From Candidatus Bathyarchaeia archaeon (lineage in GTDB: Archaea; Thermoproteota; Bathyarchaeia; Bathyarchaeales; DTEX01): 64,000 nt of DNA. The stretch covers positions 43,540-107,539 of the forward strand of contig JAWBXB010000005.1 of assembly GCA_038868075.1 (NCBI GenBank), in the 5' to 3' direction. Positions 4,966 to 14,138 of this stretch are shown piece after piece (the stretch's first letter is position 1; each line of letters begins with the position of its first letter). The notes under the pieces were generated by a model that had not been told where the DNA came from, searched no databases, and worked only from the letters and a program-made list of their open reading frames with translations. Position numbers and translations under genes: made by a program.

Positions 4966-5364
4966 ATGGCTATTCAAAGATTCAGGATAACACCTACAAG
5001 TAAGAGTGCACTATTTAGAGCTAAGAGATGGTTTTACTCAACGTTCTATACAAATGTTCCAGCTGATGTTAGAGAGGAGAATAAAAAGGTCTGGGTTGAT
5101 TTAGCCGCTAAGCTCGTTGAGGAAATAAATAGGCGTGGCGCTACCGATAAACCAGCGAGACTTACAATAAATTACGAAACTGGGCCACGTGGCGAGTTTA
5201 AGCCCCTTTCAGCAACCGTAGAACTAATGGAGATAAGGCCATTAGAAACCTTTATAATCTTCACTTCTAAGGAGGAGGAGAAAAAGAAATTAAAGACGGA
5301 GCTTGAGGAGCTGCTTAAGAGGGCAAGAGAACTTGGGATAAGTCTCGAGGAACTTGGAAAATAA
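4966..5364 (+). CDS. Hypothetical protein with a charged coiled-coil C-terminus
   Basis: 132-aa ORF with an ATG start preceded by GGGGA. I recognised no family. Confidence 0.55.
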   Translation: MAIQRFRITPTSKSALFRAKRWFYSTFYTNVPADVREENKKVWVDLAAKLVEEINRRGATDKPARLTINYETGPRGEFKPLSATVELMEIRPLETFIIFTSKEEEKKKLKTELEELLKRARELGISLEELGK

Positions 5365-5867: not shown

Positions 5868-7217
5868 ATGTTAATGAGCGAAAAATTACCCGGTTATAGA
5901 GGCTTGGCTTTAAGAACTCTTCTTGATATTGGAGCTGAGATTGGAGATCTAATACGCATAATTAAGGGGGATGTTATCTTAGAGGGAATTTTAATCCCCA
6001 GATCTAAATATGGTGATGATAGGCACATCGTGATAAAAATAAAATCTGGCTATAATATTGGAGTGGAAATTACGCCGACAACTAAAATAGAGCGGATTGG
6101 AGCAGAGACTAAGCCAGCATTTATTTCACCACCTCTACCCGAGCAAAAATCGAATCTACCGGTAGTTACTATTTTAGGTACTGGTGGAACAATAGCTAGC
6201 AGGGTTGATTACAGGACTGGTGCTGTTAGACCAGTCATTTCAGCCAGCGACTTATATAGTATTGTCCCAGAGCTATCTGACATAGCCGTTATCGAGACCG
6301 AGATACTCTTCAACATATTTAGTGAAGATTTAACACCAAAGCATTGGTCAGCTATGGCTGAGACTGTTGCTAAACATATTGCTAGAGGCGTTCAGGGCGT
6401 TGTCATAACTCATGGAACCGATATGATGGGATACTCTGCTGCGGCCCTAAGTTTTGCATTACAGAATCTGTCGGTTCCAGTGGTCTTTGTCGGCGCCCAA
6501 AGATCCGAAGATAGGCCTAGTTCTGATGCGGCTATGAATCTTATAGGTGCTGTTTTAGCTGCTTCAAGGGCACCCTTCGCTGAGGTTGTTGTAGCAATGC
6601 ATGAAACCCCATCAGATGATGCGATAGTTTTGCATAGGGGAACAAAGGTTAGGAAGTGTCACACGAGCCGTAGAGATGCCTTTAAAACTATAAATGCTAA
6701 GCCGCTTGCAAGAGTGCTTGATAATAATATTCAAATGTTGATAGATGATTATAGACCTAGAGACCCATCACGTAGTCTGATTTTGAAACCGTATTTTAGT
6801 GAAATGGCGACACTAATAAAATTTTATCCCGGCATGAACCCAAAGGTTATTGACTGGTATGTTTCTGAAGGTTATAGAGGTATTGTTTTAGAGGGTTCTG
6901 GTTTAGGGCATGTTCGTCGGGAATGTTTCCCAGCTATTAAGAGAGCTATTGAAAGTGGCGTAGTAGTTGCTATGACATCACAGTGTATTTGGGGGCGTGT
7001 TAACATGAACGTGTACTCTAATGGTAGAGATCTTTTAGCGATGGGCGTGATTCCGTTAGGTGATATGCTTGCTGAAACAGCCCTTGTCAAAATGATGTGG
7101 GCTTTAGCCCAAACTAAAGACCCTGAAGAAGTTAAAAGACTCTTATTAACAAATGTTGCGAATGAGTTCTCGGAGAGAACCGTTGAAAGCATCGAATTGC
7201 CAAGAATTATTAAGTAG
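5868..7217 (+). CDS. gatD: Glutamyl-tRNA(Gln) amidotransferase subunit D
   Basis: Asparaginase-type motif LGTGGTIASRVDYRTGAV and HGTDTM-like THGTDMMGY. It lies immediately upstream of gatE. Confidence 0.92.
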   Translation: MLMSEKLPGYRGLALRTLLDIGAEIGDLIRIIKGDVILEGILIPRSKYGDDRHIVIKIKSGYNIGVEITPTTKIERIGAETKPAFISPPLPEQKSNLPVVTILGTGGTIASRVDYRTGAVRPVISASDLYSIVPELSDIAVIETEILFNIFSEDLTPKHWSAMAETVAKHIARGVQGVVITHGTDMMGYSAAALSFALQNLSVPVVFVGAQRSEDRPSSDAAMNLIGAVLAASRAPFAEVVVAMHETPSDDAIVLHRGTKVRKCHTSRRDAFKTINAKPLARVLDNNIQMLIDDYRPRDPSRSLILKPYFSEMATLIKFYPGMNPKVIDWYVSEGYRGIVLEGSGLGHVRRECFPAIKRAIESGVVVAMTSQCIWGRVNMNVYSNGRDLLAMGVIPLGDMLAETALVKMMWALAQTKDPEEVKRLLLTNVANEFSERTVESIELPRIIK

Positions 7218-7229
7218 GAGGAAGGCATT

Positions 7230-9137
7230 TTGGGACTAAATTATTATGAGTTGGGGCTTAAAGTTGGCTTAGAATGCCACCAGCAGCTCGCAACACGTGA
7301 GAAACTTTTCTGTAAATGTAGGCCAGAACTCTTTAAGGGTGAGCCTGAAATACTATTCTTACGTAGATTAAGGCCGACGCAAAGTGAACTTGGTCAAATA
7401 GATCCGGCGGCATACTTTGAATTCCAGAAGGGTGTGAAGATACTTTATGAAGCAAATAGTGATACATCATGCCTTGTTGAAATGGATGAGGAGCCACCTC
7501 ATGAGCTTAATCCTGAAGCCTTGGAAATAGCACTGATGATAGCGTTAATGATGAATGCTAAACCAGTTAATGAAGTTTACGTTATGCGCAAAATAGTTAT
7601 AGATGGCTCAAATACAACTGGTTTTCAGAGGACATGCGTAGTTGCCTTAAATGGTTCAATAATTGTTGATGGAAAAATTGTGCCAATACAACATATAAGC
7701 CTTGAAGAGGATGCTGCAAGAAAGATGGGTGAAGAAGGTTCCATAATACGCTACAGGATTGACAGATTGGGTATACCATTAGTTGAAGTTACAACGGGAC
7801 CTGTAATAAATACGCCGGAAGAGGCTGAAAAAGTTGCTCTTGCCATAGGTAGAATATTGAGGTCTACGAGAAGGGTTAAGCGTGGAATTGGAACGATTAG
7901 GCAGGACTTAAATATATCCATTAAAGATGGAGCCTTAATTGAAATAAAGGGTGTGCAAGAGCTGGAGCTCGTATCCAAAGTTATTGAATATGAGGTTCAA
8001 AGACAATTGAACCTTCTGAAAATCCGTGATGAATTAAAGAGGCGTGGACTCAAAGATGAAGAATTGAAGGAAGAATTTGTTGATGTCACATCAATATTTA
8101 GGGAAACTAAATGTCACGTGCTTCAGAGGGCTATAAGCCAAGGAAAACCAGTATTAGCTGTCAAGTTGCCTAAATTCGCTGGTTTACTAGGCTTCGAAAT
8201 TATACCAGGTTTAAGATTCGGGAGCGAGCTTTCTGATAGAGCAAAATTTTGGGGTAGGGTTGGAGGCGTAATTCACAGCGATGAATTCCAGTTTTATAGT
8301 ATATCACGTGAGGAAATAGTTAAGTTAAAAAGCACAATGAATGCGACCGATGAAGATGCAATTGTTTTAGTTGCGGATAAAATTGAGAATGCAACTGATG
8401 CCTTAAAAGCTGTCGTTGAAAGAGCACGTGAAGCACTTAAAGGTGTTCCTGAGGAGACCCGTGCAGCAAACCCTGATGGAACAACAAGATATATGAGACC
8501 TAGGCCTGGAGCCGCTAGGATGTATCCTGAAACAGACGTCCCTCCAATAAAAATTACCGAGGAATATTTAAGGAGACTTAAGGAGAATTTGCCAGAGCAG
8601 CCTGAGGAGAGGATTAAGAATTTAATGAAAAAATATGGCATAAATGAGAAGCTTGCTAAGCAGCTTCTGGATTCTGAATATGATGAACTTTTTGAGACTA
8701 TTGTTAAAGAGACGGGCGTCATCCCAACGGTTGTTGCTGCAACGCTCACAGAAACATTTAAGGCTTTAAAACGTGAAGGTGTGAATATCGATGCTTTAAC
8801 TGATGGGCAAATAATTGATACTTTTAGGCTTGTGGGATCCGAGAAAACATCCAAAGAGGCTATACCTGAAATCATAAAGTGGTTAGCGAGGCATGAGGGT
8901 GCTGAGCCTATAGATGCTGTGAAGGAGCTCGGTTTAATGATGATCTCGGAGGAGGATCTTAAGATAATAGTAAATGAATATGCAAACAAGAATAGAGACT
9001 TAATCATAGAGAGAGGATTAGGTGCGCTTGGCGCTTTAATGGGCATAATTATGAAGGATCTTAGGGGGAGAGTTAAACCAGAAGTCGTAAATAGGATGCT
9101 AAAGGAAAAAATAATTGAGATCTCCAGAAAAGGCTAA
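7230..9137 (+). CDS. gatE: Glutamyl-tRNA(Gln) amidotransferase subunit E
   Basis: 635 aa with a GatB/E-like N-terminus (GLKVGLECHQQL) and a C-terminal YqeY-like tail. TTG start, 12 nt after gatD. Confidence 0.92.
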   Translation: MGLNYYELGLKVGLECHQQLATREKLFCKCRPELFKGEPEILFLRRLRPTQSELGQIDPAAYFEFQKGVKILYEANSDTSCLVEMDEEPPHELNPEALEIALMIALMMNAKPVNEVYVMRKIVIDGSNTTGFQRTCVVALNGSIIVDGKIVPIQHISLEEDAARKMGEEGSIIRYRIDRLGIPLVEVTTGPVINTPEEAEKVALAIGRILRSTRRVKRGIGTIRQDLNISIKDGALIEIKGVQELELVSKVIEYEVQRQLNLLKIRDELKRRGLKDEELKEEFVDVTSIFRETKCHVLQRAISQGKPVLAVKLPKFAGLLGFEIIPGLRFGSELSDRAKFWGRVGGVIHSDEFQFYSISREEIVKLKSTMNATDEDAIVLVADKIENATDALKAVVERAREALKGVPEETRAANPDGTTRYMRPRPGAARMYPETDVPPIKITEEYLRRLKENLPEQPEERIKNLMKKYGINEKLAKQLLDSEYDELFETIVKETGVIPTVVAATLTETFKALKREGVNIDALTDGQIIDTFRLVGSEKTSKEAIPEIIKWLARHEGAEPIDAVKELGLMMISEEDLKIIVNEYANKNRDLIIERGLGALGALMGIIMKDLRGRVKPEVVNRMLKEKIIEISRKG

Positions 9138-9235: not shown

Positions 9236-9712
9236 TTGGGGAAGATTCAAGCTGAGATAAGAACATCTTTCGGCAAAATAATTGTTGAGGGTGCAACAGC
9301 TAGCGACCTCCTCGAAACATTAAGATCTTTACCTAAGGATTTTATTAATGAATTAGAAAACGTTATTTCTGAGGCTACCACATTCAGTAAGAATAAAGAA
9401 TTTAATGATTTGGTAAAGTTTACAGAAAACGGCCCAATTTTAATTCTAAAGGACCCCGGAATTATTACACATTACGAGGCAGTCGGCTTAATTCTGTATT
9501 TTTCTGAGAATAGAAGTAATAGGCCATCCCAAATAAGATATCTTCTTGAGTACTCCGGGATAAAAACTCATGTTTCCTCAAGGCTAAATGAAATGGCTAA
9601 ACGCGGACTAGTCTTTAAATTAACAGTTGATGAGGCAAAGTGGACTTTGAGCCCAAGAGGTGAACGTTGGATTGAAGAAGAAGTATTACCGAAGTTAAAG
9701 AGGCTTCTGTGA
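9236..9712 (+). CDS. Hypothetical winged-helix protein, paralog family member 1
   Basis: 158 aa. The C-terminal wHTH-like segment SSRLNEMAKRGLVFKL...WTLSPRGERWIEEEVLPKLK aligns with the products of 10570..11106 and 11099..11617. Confidence 0.6.
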   Translation: MGKIQAEIRTSFGKIIVEGATASDLLETLRSLPKDFINELENVISEATTFSKNKEFNDLVKFTENGPILILKDPGIITHYEAVGLILYFSENRSNRPSQIRYLLEYSGIKTHVSSRLNEMAKRGLVFKLTVDEAKWTLSPRGERWIEEEVLPKLKRLL

Positions 9713-9715
9713 TTA

Positions 9716-10453
9716 TTACTCCTTCTCTTTAGCATACTCATCATAGGCTTTGAGCATAGCTTTAATATATTCCTTCAGCATATCAGGTGTTATTTCCGAG
9801 CTTATTGTTAGGTTTACTGAAATATTTGCTCTAGGTTCAAGAGGTATTCCGGAGGGGAAAACCTGTTTTTCTTTAATCTTTTCAGCAGGCTTAACCGCCC
9901 TAACTTCACCTGGTATAGCAACTTTCTTAGTTAACTTAGCGGGCTTTGTAGGCGTATATAACCAATCTATTTGAAAGGCATATGCTATTAAATCTAGGAA
10001 GGCACTTAATCCAACTTTGTCAGCTCTAAGATCTCCAACCACTCTTGGTAGTTCAACTAAAATGGAATCCCTATCCATGCTACTACTTCTTATGCGCTCA
10101 ACAAACTTTGTTAAGACCTCATCCTTAGACAGAATGTCTCTCAGTAACTGTTTAGTTAAGCTACTTTCAGGGTCTATTCGATACGCATATGCAAATTCCG
10201 CAGCCTCACGTGTCAATCTATATTTTCCCTGTTCCTTCTCGCTTTCTTCTATAAAACCCCAGCTTTTAAGAAAGCCATTATTACGACTAATATTATGCAA
10301 TGTGACAGTAGATCTTTCCGCTACATCGCTAACACCCACATACTCTTTATCTGCGCCAGCATTCAAGTATGCGACAAGAATGTCACATATTTTAGAGAAG
10401 CTTAAGCGCCTAGGAAGAATTTTAGATGTACACAAAATGGATCCCTCAACCAC
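9716..10453 (-). CDS. Hypothetical protein with an N-terminal winged-helix domain
   Basis: 245 aa. Reads ICDILVAYLNAGADKEYVGVSDVAERSTVTLHNISRNNGFLKSWGFIEESEKEQGKYRLT (HTH plus wing). Convergent with 9236..9712 and divergent from 10570..11106. Confidence 0.6.
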   Translation of the reverse strand: MVEGSILCTSKILPRRLSFSKICDILVAYLNAGADKEYVGVSDVAERSTVTLHNISRNNGFLKSWGFIEESEKEQGKYRLTREAAEFAYAYRIDPESSLTKQLLRDILSKDEVLTKFVERIRSSSMDRDSILVELPRVVGDLRADKVGLSAFLDLIAYAFQIDWLYTPTKPAKLTKKVAIPGEVRAVKPAEKIKEKQVFPSGIPLEPRANISVNLTISSEITPDMLKEYIKAMLKAYDEYAKEKE

Positions 10454-10569
10454 ATAAACCTATATGTTTGGGCATAATATTATATTTTTGTTTTCCAATA
10501 TCTTATTCATTTTCATTGGCGAAAAATCTTTAAATCAAAAGTTCCCATATATCTTGAAAACATAAGGAT

Positions 10570-11106
10570 TTGTGGATAACAATGTGTAACGGGGAAGCAA
10601 ACTTAGAGTTAATTGTTAAATATAAGGATATTGAGGCAAAATTCACCGGGAGCCCTGAGGATGTTATAAGAGCTTTCTTTGGTTTCATGAGTAAAGTTCT
10701 TCCAGCATATGATTTCGCTTCCAACCTAATTCTTACAGTAGACTTGGAAGATCTCTTAAAGAGGATTAAAGGGTTAATAGCGTTTACACCGGAGGGACCT
10801 GTGATAACAATCCCCCGTGAAAGACTTGGTGGAGATAGGAATGTAATAATATTGAATCTTATTAAGGCGTATGTTGGGTATAAAACTGGACGTTTAGAAA
10901 AAGATTCGCTTTCGATGTCTGAGATAATGGCTTTAACTGGCGGCAAAAGTGGAACCATTGCCGCTCGTTTAAGCGAGCTAACGGATATTGGTTTAGTTGA
11001 GAGAGTTGGACGTGGGGAGTATAGAATTACAACACTAGGTGTTAAGTTCTTTTTAGAGGAGGTTCTTCCGAAAATTAAGTTAGAGGGCGGATCTGGATTT
11101 GAGTGA
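10570..11106 (+). CDS. Hypothetical winged-helix protein, paralog family member 2
   Basis: 178 aa. Reads IAARLSELTDIGLVERVGRGEYRITTLGVKFFLEEVLPKIK. The likely start is ATG 10582. Confidence 0.65.
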   Translation: MWITMCNGEANLELIVKYKDIEAKFTGSPEDVIRAFFGFMSKVLPAYDFASNLILTVDLEDLLKRIKGLIAFTPEGPVITIPRERLGGDRNVIILNLIKAYVGYKTGRLEKDSLSMSEIMALTGGKSGTIAARLSELTDIGLVERVGRGEYRITTLGVKFFLEEVLPKIKLEGGSGFE

Positions 11107-11617
11107 AAAAGGAAAAGGAGTTGTTAAAGTTCATTTAGAATTTAACGATATTAAAGCTGATTTTGAGGGGGATTCTGACCAGGTTTTTGAGTCTGTACTA
11201 CGATTCCTATCACAAATAAATCCAAATATCGAGGTTCTCCGGAGGATAATTTATACGCCAGACATTGTAAAACTGATGAATTCTATCGCCGGATTAGTGG
11301 AGATAACACCAGGTGGACCAACAATAACACCAAGCGCCAATCTACCTACTAAAAGCTCTATATGCCTAGTTCTTTTAGGCGCATACATTGGCAATAAGAT
11401 TGGAAAGATGCAGAAGGATACTTTATCCGTAAATGAGATATCAATGTTAATAGGGAAGGCCAGAAAAACCGTGAGCAATGAGATTCCAAATCTTGTTGAA
11501 AGCGGATTAGTTGAGAAGGTATCTGAGGGAGAATATCGAATAACACAGCTGGGAATAAGGAGAACCGAAGAACTAGTTAAATCGATAAAGCAGGGCAGCA
11601 CATTACCTACCAAGTAG
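11099..11617 (+). CDS. Hypothetical winged-helix protein, paralog family member 3
   Basis: 172 aa. It overlaps the previous gene by 8 nt. VSNEIPNLVESGLVEKVSEGEYRITQLGIRRTEELV is collinear with 10570..11106 along its whole length. Confidence 0.65.
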   Translation: MSEKGKGVVKVHLEFNDIKADFEGDSDQVFESVLRFLSQINPNIEVLRRIIYTPDIVKLMNSIAGLVEITPGGPTITPSANLPTKSSICLVLLGAYIGNKIGKMQKDTLSVNEISMLIGKARKTVSNEIPNLVESGLVEKVSEGEYRITQLGIRRTEELVKSIKQGSTLPTK

Positions 11618-11624
11618 ATCGGTT

Positions 11625-12890
11625 ATGGAAAAATCCAATTTTTACGTTAGTGATATATACATCTTTTTAATTTCTCGTAATTGCTTATCTTCTGTTTTAG
11701 GGAGCCGTGAGGAGGTCTTGAGGGGTAAGCCTTTAGCCGCTGTAGTTTCAGCTGGATTATCAAAGTTTGGTAAAAGAGATGGCTTTTCAGGTAGAGAGAT
11801 GTTTATTGAAGCCGCTAAAGAGGCATTTGAAAGATGCCCTAACATTGATCCGAAAAGGGATATTAAGGCGCTCATAGTTGGCAATATGAGTGAATCCTTT
11901 GAGCATCAATGCCACTCGGCTCCAATAATGTCAGACTGGGCTGGCTTATTGCCTATACCATCAGTTAGAGTTGAGGTTGCATGCGCATCTTCAGGAGCCG
12001 CTATTAGGTATGGATTAATTTCAATACTCTCAGGCATGTACGATGTTGTTATGGTCGGCGGCTTCGAAAAGATGACTCATAGAACAACGCTTGATGCAAC
12101 TGAATACTTAGCTATGGCATCTGACTTCCCATTTGAGCAATGGAATGGAGCAACATTTCCGGGATTATTTGCGCTTATGGCAACAGCACATATGAATGAC
12201 TATGGGACAAGTGAGGAGCAAATGGCTCTTGTTGCAGTTAAAAATCATCATAATGGCACGTTAAATCCAAAAGCCCATATACAGAAAGAGGTTACTGTTG
12301 AGCAGGTTTTAAGCTCAAGAGTGATAGCTAAACCATTAAAGCTTTTTGACTGCTCCCTAATCTCTGATGGAGCTAGCTGTGCGATTTTAACTAGACCGGA
12401 TATGGCGAGAAAATATACTGATACACCCGTTTATATAATAGGTTCAGGACATGGGACGGATGCGATAGGACTTTATGAGAGAGAAAGCCTAACAAGTCTT
12501 AAAGCGACGAGGCTTGCCGCTAAAGAAGCTTACGAGATGGCTGGTTTAGAAGCCAAAGATATTGATATCGCTGAGGTCCATGATTGCTTCACAATAGCCG
12601 AGATAATTGCCTATGAAGATTTAGGTTTTTGTAAACCTGGAGAGGGTGGAAAATTTATTGAGGAAGGCATTCCAACACTGGATGGTGAACTACCAGTGAA
12701 CACTAGTGGGGGTCTTAAAGCGAAAGGACACCCCGTTGGCGCAACGGGTACGGCGCAGTTATACGAAATCTTCCTGCAACTGACTGGTCAAGCTGGTGAA
12801 AGGCAGGCTGATGGATGCAATATTGGTTTGACACAGAATTTAGGTGGAAGTGGTGCAACATGCATAGTTCATATATATTGTAGGGGGTGA
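11625..12890 (+). CDS. Archaeal acetyl-CoA acetyltransferase (thiolase)
   Basis: Thiolase motifs VACASSGAAI, HDCFTIAE and GHPVGATG. The first roughly 30 codons look non-homologous, so the alternative in-frame TTG at 11718 (LRGKPLAAVVSAG) is plausible. Confidence 0.88.
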   Translation: MEKSNFYVSDIYIFLISRNCLSSVLGSREEVLRGKPLAAVVSAGLSKFGKRDGFSGREMFIEAAKEAFERCPNIDPKRDIKALIVGNMSESFEHQCHSAPIMSDWAGLLPIPSVRVEVACASSGAAIRYGLISILSGMYDVVMVGGFEKMTHRTTLDATEYLAMASDFPFEQWNGATFPGLFALMATAHMNDYGTSEEQMALVAVKNHHNGTLNPKAHIQKEVTVEQVLSSRVIAKPLKLFDCSLISDGASCAILTRPDMARKYTDTPVYIIGSGHGTDAIGLYERESLTSLKATRLAAKEAYEMAGLEAKDIDIAEVHDCFTIAEIIAYEDLGFCKPGEGGKFIEEGIPTLDGELPVNTSGGLKAKGHPVGATGTAQLYEIFLQLTGQAGERQADGCNIGLTQNLGGSGATCIVHIYCRG

Positions 12891-12894
12891 CATC

Positions 12895-13299
12895 TTGAGC
12901 GGTGAAGAATACCCGCTTACAATTGAGCAATTCTACAAGTTTATAGGTGAAAAGAAACTTATGGGCGCAAAATGTAACAAGTGTGGAAATATTCTTGTTC
13001 CACCCAGACCAATATGTCCAAAATGCTTTTCAAACAATTTAAGCTGGATCCAGCTGGAGAATAGGGGTAAACTTTTAACGTATACTGTTATTCATGTTGC
13101 GCCAGGAATGTTTCAGCAAATGGTTCCTTACGCCATGGGAATAATTGAGCTAAAGAATGGTGTCCGATTACCAGGAATAATCCAAGGAGTAAAGCATGAA
13201 GATCTAAAGATAGGTATGGAACTAGAAGTAGACTTTGACACAAAAATTCCCTCAACGTGGCCTCAATGGCCAAGATACTTCTTTAGGCCATCATCATAA
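12895..13299 (+). CDS. DUF35 OB-fold/Zn-ribbon protein (thiolase/HMG-CoA synthase scaffold family)
   Basis: Zn-ribbon CNKCGNILVPPRPICPKCFS followed by an OB-fold region. Canonical position directly downstream of the thiolase. Confidence 0.85.
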   Translation: MSGEEYPLTIEQFYKFIGEKKLMGAKCNKCGNILVPPRPICPKCFSNNLSWIQLENRGKLLTYTVIHVAPGMFQQMVPYAMGIIELKNGVRLPGIIQGVKHEDLKIGMELEVDFDTKIPSTWPQWPRYFFRPSS

Positions 13300-13350: not shown

Positions 13351-13614
13351 ATGAGCGAGGACGAATTCAGTAAATATGTGAATGACCCTCTCTGGCCAAT
13401 TCTAGTAGAGACTGTCCATGCAATAGTTATGTATAGACATCATAAGGCTTATGTCAGAGAAAAAGTGTTGCGTGAGCAACCAAATATATCGCCTAGAAAA
13501 CTTGCTGCGGATATGGGCATACCACTTGGCGAAGCAATAGTCATTTTATATGAGATTAGGAGCGAGTTGGGGGAGAAGGCAAAATTCAGCGTCTCTCAGC
13601 CTTCAACAACATAA
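13351..13614 (+). CDS. Hypothetical small HTH-like protein
   Basis: 87 aa. Reads [24 protein letters not shown] (HTH-like). Its 3' end overlaps the convergent rpoH by 19 nt. Confidence 0.5.
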
Positions 13615-14138
13615 CGGTAATAGACGTGTTCCCCAGCTGTTGGGCTGCGTCTCGTTATCTTAATTATATCTCCAGGTTTAGCTCCAATAACTCGTACAAT
13701 TGGGTCAGATGTCTTTATGCGGGGTAGTTTATATGGTTCAACACGATATTTCTCCAGAACCTCTTTTCTCTCCTCAGGAGAGAGAATTTCATGCTTTGGA
13801 ACAAGATAGTGCCTAAATATATTGAATGAAGGGAAGTCTTGTGGTATCAGCTCAATATTCTTCCTCCGAGCTAAGGATTTGGCTGACTGAGTATATTTTC
13901 CGCTCACAATTATGCCGTTCTCAACATTCTTAGAACTCATATATTTTGCCATTTGATTAATATATTTCACGCCTATAGCTTCATCTGTTGAAATAACCCA
14001 AATAAGAATCTTCTTACCTTCAGAATCCTCAACAGTGATTAAGGCGCCCTCTTTGGCATTCTCCCTTTCTAGTAACTTATAATTTCTAAGTTCAATTAGC
14101 ACCTGCGTTTTCCTTTCAAGTATAGGGTCAAGAGCCAA
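13596..14138 (-). CDS. rpoH: RNA polymerase subunit H (Rpo5) with an Rpb5-like N-terminal extension
   Basis: The C-terminal 70 aa, [66 protein letters not shown], form the RpoH/Rpb5 C-domain. About 105 additional N-terminal residues sit in the same ORF (TTG start 14138). Confidence 0.9.

Follow-up and report, generated by a model that had tools for sequence, protein, structure and literature searches.

We identified, in a 64,000-nucleotide (nt) stretch of a Candidatus Bathyarchaeia archaeon genome (contig JAWBXB010000005.1, positions 43,540 to 107,539 of the forward strand, hereafter the window), a cluster of four genes without a recognised family, A, B, C and D, three of which (A, C and D) encode collinear paralogs with an acidic N-terminal module (N-module) and a basic C-terminal winged helix-turn-helix (wHTH). 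Throughout the related genomes C and D stay together, the cluster is conserved almost as well as the neighbouring gatDE genes, and in other archaea the C-D pair lies beside genes for a NurA-like nuclease, a HerA-like ATPase and a small winged-helix (wH) protein that we call S. The reading we favour, although only tentatively, is that the proteins form a hetero-oligomeric DNA-binding unit with a C-D core, to which A (or, elsewhere, S) is added as an accessory subunit and B is perhaps tethered, and that this unit is functionally linked to a non-canonical NurA/HerA machine.

The Bathyarchaeia count among the most abundant archaea that remain uncultured, and no function has been assigned to a large part of their conserved genes. 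The rate at which the cluster described here evolves is almost as low as that of an essential tRNA amidotransferase, but no curated family matches it, and it therefore probably encodes a core function.

Three collinear paralogs with a two-part architecture

An earlier note on this DNA had proposed that A, C and D are three collinear paralogs, and this is correct, since alignment of the ortholog profiles revealed full-length collinear homology. C and D share 37% identity over 163 amino acids (aa) (BLASTP E=3e-33; hhalign E=4.8e-39), and A and C share 24% over 109 aa (BLASTP E=3e-6; hhalign E=1.1e-10). A and D were not significant by BLASTP, and hhalign aligned A3-156 with D8-165 at a probability of 97.5% (E=6.7e-12). 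The four open reading frames (ORFs) lie where the note had placed them, including the 8-nt overlap of C and D (11099-11106), and only the start of C had to be revised: the frame can be read from the TTG at 10570, as proposed, but the orthologs and the 174-aa NCBI protein favour the ATG at 10582. Orthologs of A begin at the same MGK position as A itself.

The two sequence signatures previously pointed out, the GL(I/V)...TP.GP motif and the C-terminal GEYRIT wHTH, are conserved family-wide, as G-L-[IV]-x-x-T-x-x-G-P and GEY(R/K)IT..LG, respectively. The N-terminal unit that had been illustrated with three peptides is indeed shared, although the peptides had been listed in an order that differs from the coordinates. 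An AlphaFold2 model of C (predicted local distance difference test, pLDDT, 85), for which the input consisted of 96 C- and D-family sequences and the single A sequence of the window, contains a beta-hairpin (residues 8-23), three helices (25-39, 41-49, the latter with low confidence, and 55-61), a second beta-hairpin (66-75) carrying GL[IV]xxTPxGP, a canonical wHTH (85-149) and a C-terminal helix (151-167). In topology, the N-module of A, C and D is similar to a degenerate winged helix, and their C-terminal wHTH displays the recognition-helix pattern K-T-x-S-x-R-L-S-E-L. All three paralogs are split in charge, with isoelectric points (pI) of 4.8-4.9 for the N-modules and 9.1-9.6 for the wHTH halves. 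An internal duplication of the N-module and the second winged helix (wH2) was checked and rejected, as the match extended over 11 columns only, at the helix3-wing junction.

Rare fusions were found among the matches in the representative library (P0379, P0384, P0404, P0324). Two of them join a C/D-type protein to an N-terminal domain of ~200 aa that has no Pfam hit and a PD...E.K pattern looking like PD-(D/E)xK, and another carries a C-terminal DUF488; these fusions fit DNA-directed roles. The remaining one, a 535-aa protein in which a Ser/Thr kinase is followed by truncated C-like and D-like parts, may be an artefact of assembly or gene calling.

The order of three helices and a beta-hairpin in the N-module, followed by a canonical wHTH, also fits a tandem-wH layout, and this raises the possibility of a protein scaffold in which the winged helices serve protein-protein contacts and which would be an analogue or a distant homologue of ESCRT-II (Vps22/Vps36/Vps25) or of the kite/kleisin subunits of SMC complexes. 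Several observations point in this direction: the helix3-wing junction motif GL[IV]E..xG occurs in both halves, one Caldarchaeum member matches Pfam EAP30/Vps36 collinearly over both halves (E=1.2e-3), family columns 47-149 align with residues 134-237 of human SNF8 (hhalign P=0.009), A matches MksE (E=0.12), and there are several paralogous subunits, as in ESCRT-II. However, none of these signals reaches significance: EAP30 was matched by one of 34 members, at 19 bits against a threshold of 26.8, the SNF8 alignment has an hhalign probability of 4.5%, VPS25 was not significant (both human query sequences were verified against PDB 3cuq and 2zme), and Foldseek returned generic single-wHTH matches only. 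No ESCRT-III (Snf7), Vps4, SMC or kleisin gene is present in the neighbourhoods examined, and both the basic charge of wH2 and its recognition-helix pattern point to binding of nucleic acids. We consider a scaffold of this kind improbable and treat the weak resemblance to ESCRT-II as a lead, not as a result.

Family and structure searches

As in the earlier note, which had recognised no known family, none of the four proteins matched a Pfam or NCBIfam model above its curated threshold. The C-terminal ~50 residues of A, C and D gave sub-threshold wHTH matches (HVO_A0261_N, MarR_2, HTH_5, TrmB, Csa3), the best Pfam matches reaching 13-22 bits against cut-offs of 21-35 and the NCBIfam model HTH_metalloreg 19 bits against 55, and the matches in PADLOC were sub-threshold and to generic wHTH only. 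Membership of the ordinary ArsR or MarR families, which the note had set against its own proposal, was thus not found at these thresholds. PDB sequence searches with B and with C were empty, and a PDB search with the family profile retrieved generic wHTH regulators only. Foldseek found no whole-chain match for the models of B and C in the PDB or for C in BFVD (E of 2e-3 or worse); what it matched were generic single wHTH domains from AspA, MarR, ArsR and methyltransferases, aligned to the wHTH of C only, with a TM-score on the query of at most 0.39. No description of this cluster was found in literature searches.

Conservation and gene order

An exhaustive search with the family profile yielded 588 representatives with E<=1e-3, of which 185 had E<=1e-10. 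C has more than 120 clusters at 62-80% identity. All organism-named members are from Bathyarchaeia, Caldarchaeales (Caldarchaeum, Wolframiiraptor) or Geothermarchaeota. The broad family alignment was too divergent to seed a genome scan, and synteny was analysed with a B profile against species-representative genomes, which gave 46 loci, all of which carry Bathyarchaeia or Bathyarchaeota in their titles apart from two records that are short or have a generic label.

C and D occur together in every locus that has either of them, and in eight independent loci their junction ranges from -14 to +21 nt; such abutting or overlapping ORFs suggest translational coupling. B is adjoined by gatE in 40 of the 41 loci with enough flank and has C-D on its other side in 34 of 39, within 400 nt in 29 of these. 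A is present in 23 of 41 loci, those of the window's closer relatives, and is therefore clade-specific. Four lineages (L001, L039, L044 and L047), including the B26-1 and B26-2 genomes, have a second A-like paralog between B and C, and their clusters thus comprise four paralogs plus B. Five loci have B beside gatDE with unrelated genes upstream and C-D not nearby. One species (L035) has an insert of ~2.3 kb between C and B, with three ORFs of 157, 315 and 114 aa. The four-gene cluster of the earlier note is therefore borne out as a set of genes that co-occur in many genomes, but not as one fixed unit, given that A is restricted to a clade, B remains tied to gatE without C-D, and C-D can lack B.

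Across species, the sequence identity between B and its counterpart in the window is correlated with the values for GatD and GatE (r=0.89-0.90), and the mean identities across the species loci are 69% for C, 64% for B, 61% for A and 57% for D, next to 74% for GatE and 75% for GatD. Together, the correlation and the high identities indicate vertical descent under strong constraint. This pattern bears on the idea that the cluster is a mobile or defence module (a toxin-antitoxin of the AbiE type, for example, or an anti-phage system based on HerA) whose position beside gatDE is a coincidence. Weak matches in PADLOC to AbiEi and to the wHTH of Csa3/CARF would agree with such an origin, as would the weak matches of the HerA-like ATPase encoded near C-D in related loci to the mad8 and anti-phage HerA models and the rare fusions to nuclease-like and DUF488 domains. 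Yet the fixed genomic position and a divergence parallel to that of gatDE imply vertical inheritance, homologs were not found in IMG/VR, PLSDB (plasmid) or INPHARED (phage), no toxin or nucleotidyltransferase partner is present, and the PADLOC matches cover the generic wHTH only, so that we regard a defence module as very unlikely.

A NurA-like and HerA-like module beside C-D

The C-D pair has wider partners, namely an operon of NurA-like and HerA-like genes and the gene of a small wH protein, which goes beyond what the earlier note had described. The arrangement C> D> <S NurA> HerA> is shared by Caldarchaeales (L051-L053) and by at least eight Bathyarchaeia species plus L054. The trio that follows C-D in Caldarchaeales consists of a convergent S of 135 aa, with a beta-hairpin/helix unit, a low-complexity linker and one wH, a NurA-domain protein of 341 aa and a HerA/DUF87 ATPase of 488 aa. 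The trio also lies beyond D in the Bathyarchaeia loci L021, L026, L028, L030, L032 (a fragment), L033, L042, L050 and L054, and its proteins are about 25-40% identical between the two lineages. A further locus, L056, has the order C> D> <DUF523-like <S NurA> HerA> and no B or gatDE in its vicinity. From this recurrence across lineages, including L056, it follows that the most widely conserved partnership of C-D is the one with S, NurA and HerA; B-gatDE is a second block that usually abuts C-D, and A is a third paralog confined to one clade. No locus has both S and A: A is present in none of the six loci with S and in 21 of the 27 without.

The Pfam NurA and DUF87 matches of these neighbouring genes are above threshold, and the proteins keep catalytic-type motifs that can be read from their sequences (IDAS/CDMS, LxDG[AS]L, GKS Walker A and EEAH). 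The HerA-like ATPase is only distantly related to canonical HerA: it reaches 44-47 bits where the HerA equivalog models require 800-970, and it matches PDB 4d2i with E=2e-12. Two further genes accompany the module. One, resembling DUF523/2-thiouracil desulfurase (Pfam 2-thiour_desulf, sub-threshold), is repeatedly located between D and S in the Bathyarchaeia loci that carry NurA/HerA. The other, in Caldarchaeales, encodes an 8-oxoguanine DNA glycosylase (Ogg-HhH, E=7e-50) directly after the HerA-like gene and adds a DNA-repair flavour to that neighbourhood.

Protein B

B is unrelated to the A/C/D paralogs. Its wHTH is at the N-terminus, as had been noted earlier: in the AlphaFold2 model (pLDDT 82) it spans residues 19-80 and is followed by five helices (82-160), a disordered stretch (172-205) and a confident C-terminal helix (223-244). 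Only sub-threshold Rrf2/IclR-type (Rrf2/KdgR) wHTH matches were obtained with Pfam and NCBIfam, again at the N-terminus. Behind a variable, disordered and basic linker (pI 10.1) lies the C-terminal segment ANISxNLTISPEIxPExLKEYIKAxLEAY, which is highly conserved in an alignment of 72 sequences. A conserved, alternating-hydrophobic segment before the C-terminal helix is strand-like by sequence, and DSSP calls no strand there in the monomer. The proposal that the C-terminus of B is a domain-swapped copy of the paralogs' N-unit was not supported. A hidden Markov model (HMM) of 121 N-units misses it and has its best domains elsewhere, at ~0 bits, close to reversed and shuffled controls, and the best hhalign hint for this C-terminus, against S, has E=0.02.

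Regulatory DNA

The earlier note had suggested searching the divergent region between B and C for shared motifs. Such a motif exists, RAA(A/G)TCTTT or a close variant being found in 33 of 34 orthologous spacers compared with 0.7 expected in shuffles. Its counterpart in the window, GCGAAAAATCTTTAAAT, occurs once in the 64 kb and reads as a candidate promoter for C-D, with a B recognition element (BRE) and a TATA box. An operator search of this spacer found no conserved palindrome. Related loci have a similar BRE/TATA-like element, GCGCAAYATTTAWATA, in the spacer that separates S from nurA; it is invariant between Bathyarchaeia and Caldarchaeales, and in Bathyarchaeia a 7-1-7 palindrome, TGTTCAAGTTGAACA, lies between the divergent promoters as a candidate operator. 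This palindrome is absent from the window.

The main rival explanation is that four or more ordinary one-component wH transcription factors act as homodimers, with B controlling itself and C-D from the shared intergenic region, S controlling nurA-herA elsewhere, and the paralogs representing a tandem expansion. The divergent layout, which looks like that of regulator and target, the strongly conserved promoter elements and the conserved palindrome between S and nurA speak for such regulators, whose wHTH domains, moreover, are basic and resemble those of Csa3, MarR, ArsR, CooA and IdeR; the automatic annotation of the Joint Genome Institute labels some members as ArsR-family. Against this stand the family matches, all below curated cut-offs, and an N-module without a match to any known sensor or dimerisation domain. 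Local regulators are seldom conserved nearly as well as GatDE throughout a whole class, C and D were always found together and close to each other, and the B/C region has no palindromic operator, its conserved motif reading as a BRE/TATA promoter. A set of ordinary regulators thus seems to us possible but rather doubtful.

A proposed DNA-binding unit and its possible mechanism

Our preference, still held with caution, is for a hetero-oligomeric unit, because C and D are invariably paired, several paralogs are gathered in one cluster, the genes are conserved nearly as well as GatDE, and each paralog combines an acidic module with a basic wHTH. As the core pair lies beside DNA nuclease and motor genes in related archaea, the cluster is probably part of a DNA-handling assembly and not a set of four ordinary regulators. 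From the observed paralogy, domain layout, conservation, synteny and charge distribution we infer hetero-oligomerisation, DNA binding and a functional coupling to NurA/HerA. Of the multi-subunit assembly or regulatory module that the earlier note had put forward, the assembly is plausible, with the tight C/D pairing, the GatDE-like conservation, the acidic and basic halves and the conserved end of B behind its disordered linker in its favour; the part that invoked a domain swap is not supported.

C and D would be co-transcribed and would form a heterodimer or hetero-oligomer through their N-modules, which would place two non-identical wHTH domains on DNA. Accessory subunits may join this core according to lineage: A in the window's clade, a second A-like copy in some genomes and S in others. 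B, encoded divergently from C-D, may bind DNA by its own wHTH and dock to a partner via the C-terminal element on its flexible basic linker. The assembled unit could target the NurA-like nuclease and HerA-like ATPase to DNA, or control the pair; in the window's clade, where these two genes are not adjacent, they may lie elsewhere or have been lost.

Several observations weigh against this preferred unit. Genes for S and for NurA-like and HerA-like proteins were not found within the 64-kb window, and NurA/HerA is therefore a putative partner in this organism. S is divergent from nurA-herA with a palindrome between them, and B and C-D are arranged alike, which is a classic layout of ordinary regulators; the position of TGTTCAAGTTGAACA between the divergent S and nurA promoters gives reasonable grounds for regarding at least S as a conventional regulator. 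In sequence, the C-terminal domain is most similar to the wHTH of true transcription factors (Csa3, MarR, ArsR, CooA). Lastly, B stays by gatE where C-D is not nearby, and it may therefore not belong to the same functional unit.

A more specific and more speculative version, which we think unlikely, is that A, C and D (S elsewhere) are subunits of an undescribed heteromeric tandem-wH complex that loads, orients or gates a non-canonical HerA-type DNA translocase and its NurA-type nuclease, an archaeal counterpart in design of kite/kleisin-SMC or FtsK-gamma/KOPS with possible ancestry in common with the tandem winged helices of ESCRT-II, and with B as the tethering subunit. If this were true, the cluster would add a data point on how small wH paralogs are recruited into heteromeric machines, in the archaeal lineage behind ESCRT-II-type assemblies. 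On a practical level, the link to NurA/HerA provides a testable hypothesis, that of a DNA-targeting wH complex for a nuclease and translocase, and defines six or seven genes as a set for in vitro reconstitution.

Gene neighbourhood

The flanks of the cluster are as previously described: gatD and gatE adjoin its left end, and the genes of a thiolase and of a DUF35-type OB/zinc-ribbon protein its right end (Table 1). The thiolase/DUF35 pair lies between D and rpoH in the window's subclade only, whereas rpoH directly follows D in sister lineages; this distribution suggests that the pair was inserted locally into an older gene arrangement. In many related loci, D and the gene of the RNA polymerase subunit H/Rpb5 homolog converge. 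In the product of the latter, a restriction-endonuclease-like domain at the N-terminus (Pfam Mrr_cat, 29 bits, above threshold; NA-iREase1 weak) precedes Rpb5_C; this two-domain layout differs from the usual short archaeal RpoH. Two small ORFs flank the region, and a search with Rfam found no RNA genes in it.

Table 1. Positions of the genes and sequence elements in the window and, where a locus is named, in related loci.
Feature	Coordinates	Strand	Remarks
Small ORF	4966-5364	+	132 aa; no Pfam hit
gatD	5868..7217	+	left flank, conserved; syntenic in related loci; outside the wH family; GatD_N/Asparaginase Pfam domains on orthologs
gatE	7230..9137	+	B, or A plus B, invariably lies next to its 3' end
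A	9236..9712	+	158 aa, TTG start; divergent full-length paralog of C and D
B	9716..10453	-	245 aa; N-terminal wHTH, five-helix domain, basic disordered linker, conserved C-terminal segment
B/C-D divergent intergenic region	10454..10581		carries BRE/TATA-like element GCGAAAAATCTTTAAAT, core 10523-10533, + strand
C	10582..11106	+	174 aa, ATG start; most conserved paralog
D	11099..11617	+	172 aa; always paired with C
Thiolase/DUF35 pair	11625-13299		
Small ORF	13351-13614	+	87 aa; no Pfam hit
RNA polymerase subunit H/Rpb5 homolog	13596-14138	-	180 aa
Second A-like paralog	L001:5515-5988		
Insert between C and B	L035:2670-4689		
DUF523-like gene	L021:3240-3782; L054:8800-9381; L056:9521-9958; L032:109-762		
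S/nurA spacer elements	L033:715-729; L050:3040-3054		aligned spacers L021, L028, L030, L054, L056, L052, L053
8-oxoguanine DNA glycosylase	L052:9685-10308; L053:8022-8645		

Comparison with known systems

By sequence, the C-terminal domain of A, C and D comes closest to the wHTH domains of Csa3/CARF, MarR, ArsR and CooA, and the likeness to Csa3, MarR and ArsR is confined to the C-terminal ~70 residues, which form a canonical basic wHTH. Unlike ArsR, MarR or TrmB proteins, A, C and D have no MarR-type flanking dimerisation helices, no ArsR metal site and no TrmB sugar domain; instead, they possess an acidic beta/alpha N-module of ~80 residues and occur as an obligate heterologous pair or trio. 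Matches to Csa3 span profile positions ~140-215 (the wHTH) only, the CARF domain is absent and no cas genes adjoin the cluster. Those to AbiEi reach 14-24 bits over the first ~70 profile positions only, and there is no AbiEii neighbour.

AspA, the centromere-binding protein of pNOB8, is among the better structural fits to the wHTH domains of B and C (TM-score on target 0.61-0.77), and the family profile matches AspA with E=3e-4, in both cases over the generic wHTH only. AspA, however, is a single-domain homodimer of 90 aa that works with ParA and ParB, and neither ParA nor ParB is linked to the cluster.

With ESCRT-II the family shares small paralogous subunits, several of them encoded together, whose secondary-structure order would be compatible with two consecutive wH-like units, and a weak collinear similarity to EAP30/SNF8, and it differs in having an extra N-terminal beta-hairpin and a wH2 that looks like a DNA binder. 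A survey of archaeal ESCRT systems (PMC10936438) contains no description of this cluster. The kite/kleisin systems (ScpB/ScpA, MksE/MksF) would be similar in having tandem-wH subunits that act as dimers, and B, with its wH and helical parts on a flexible linker, would be the matching partner; an ATPase and a nuclease are present in the related loci, as in Wadjet. In contrast to these systems, no Pfam SMC_ScpB or MksE membership was found (A matches MksE at E=0.12 only), and the ATPase is of the HerA/FtsK type, not SMC.

The canonical archaeal HerA-NurA end-resection machine has its likeness in the adjacent genes for NurA-domain and HerA (DUF87) proteins of the related loci, with motifs that look intact. 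The scores remain below the equivalog level and mre11/rad50 are not adjacent; instead, the neighbours of the NurA-like and HerA-like genes in these loci are S, the DUF523-like gene, C-D and Ogg.

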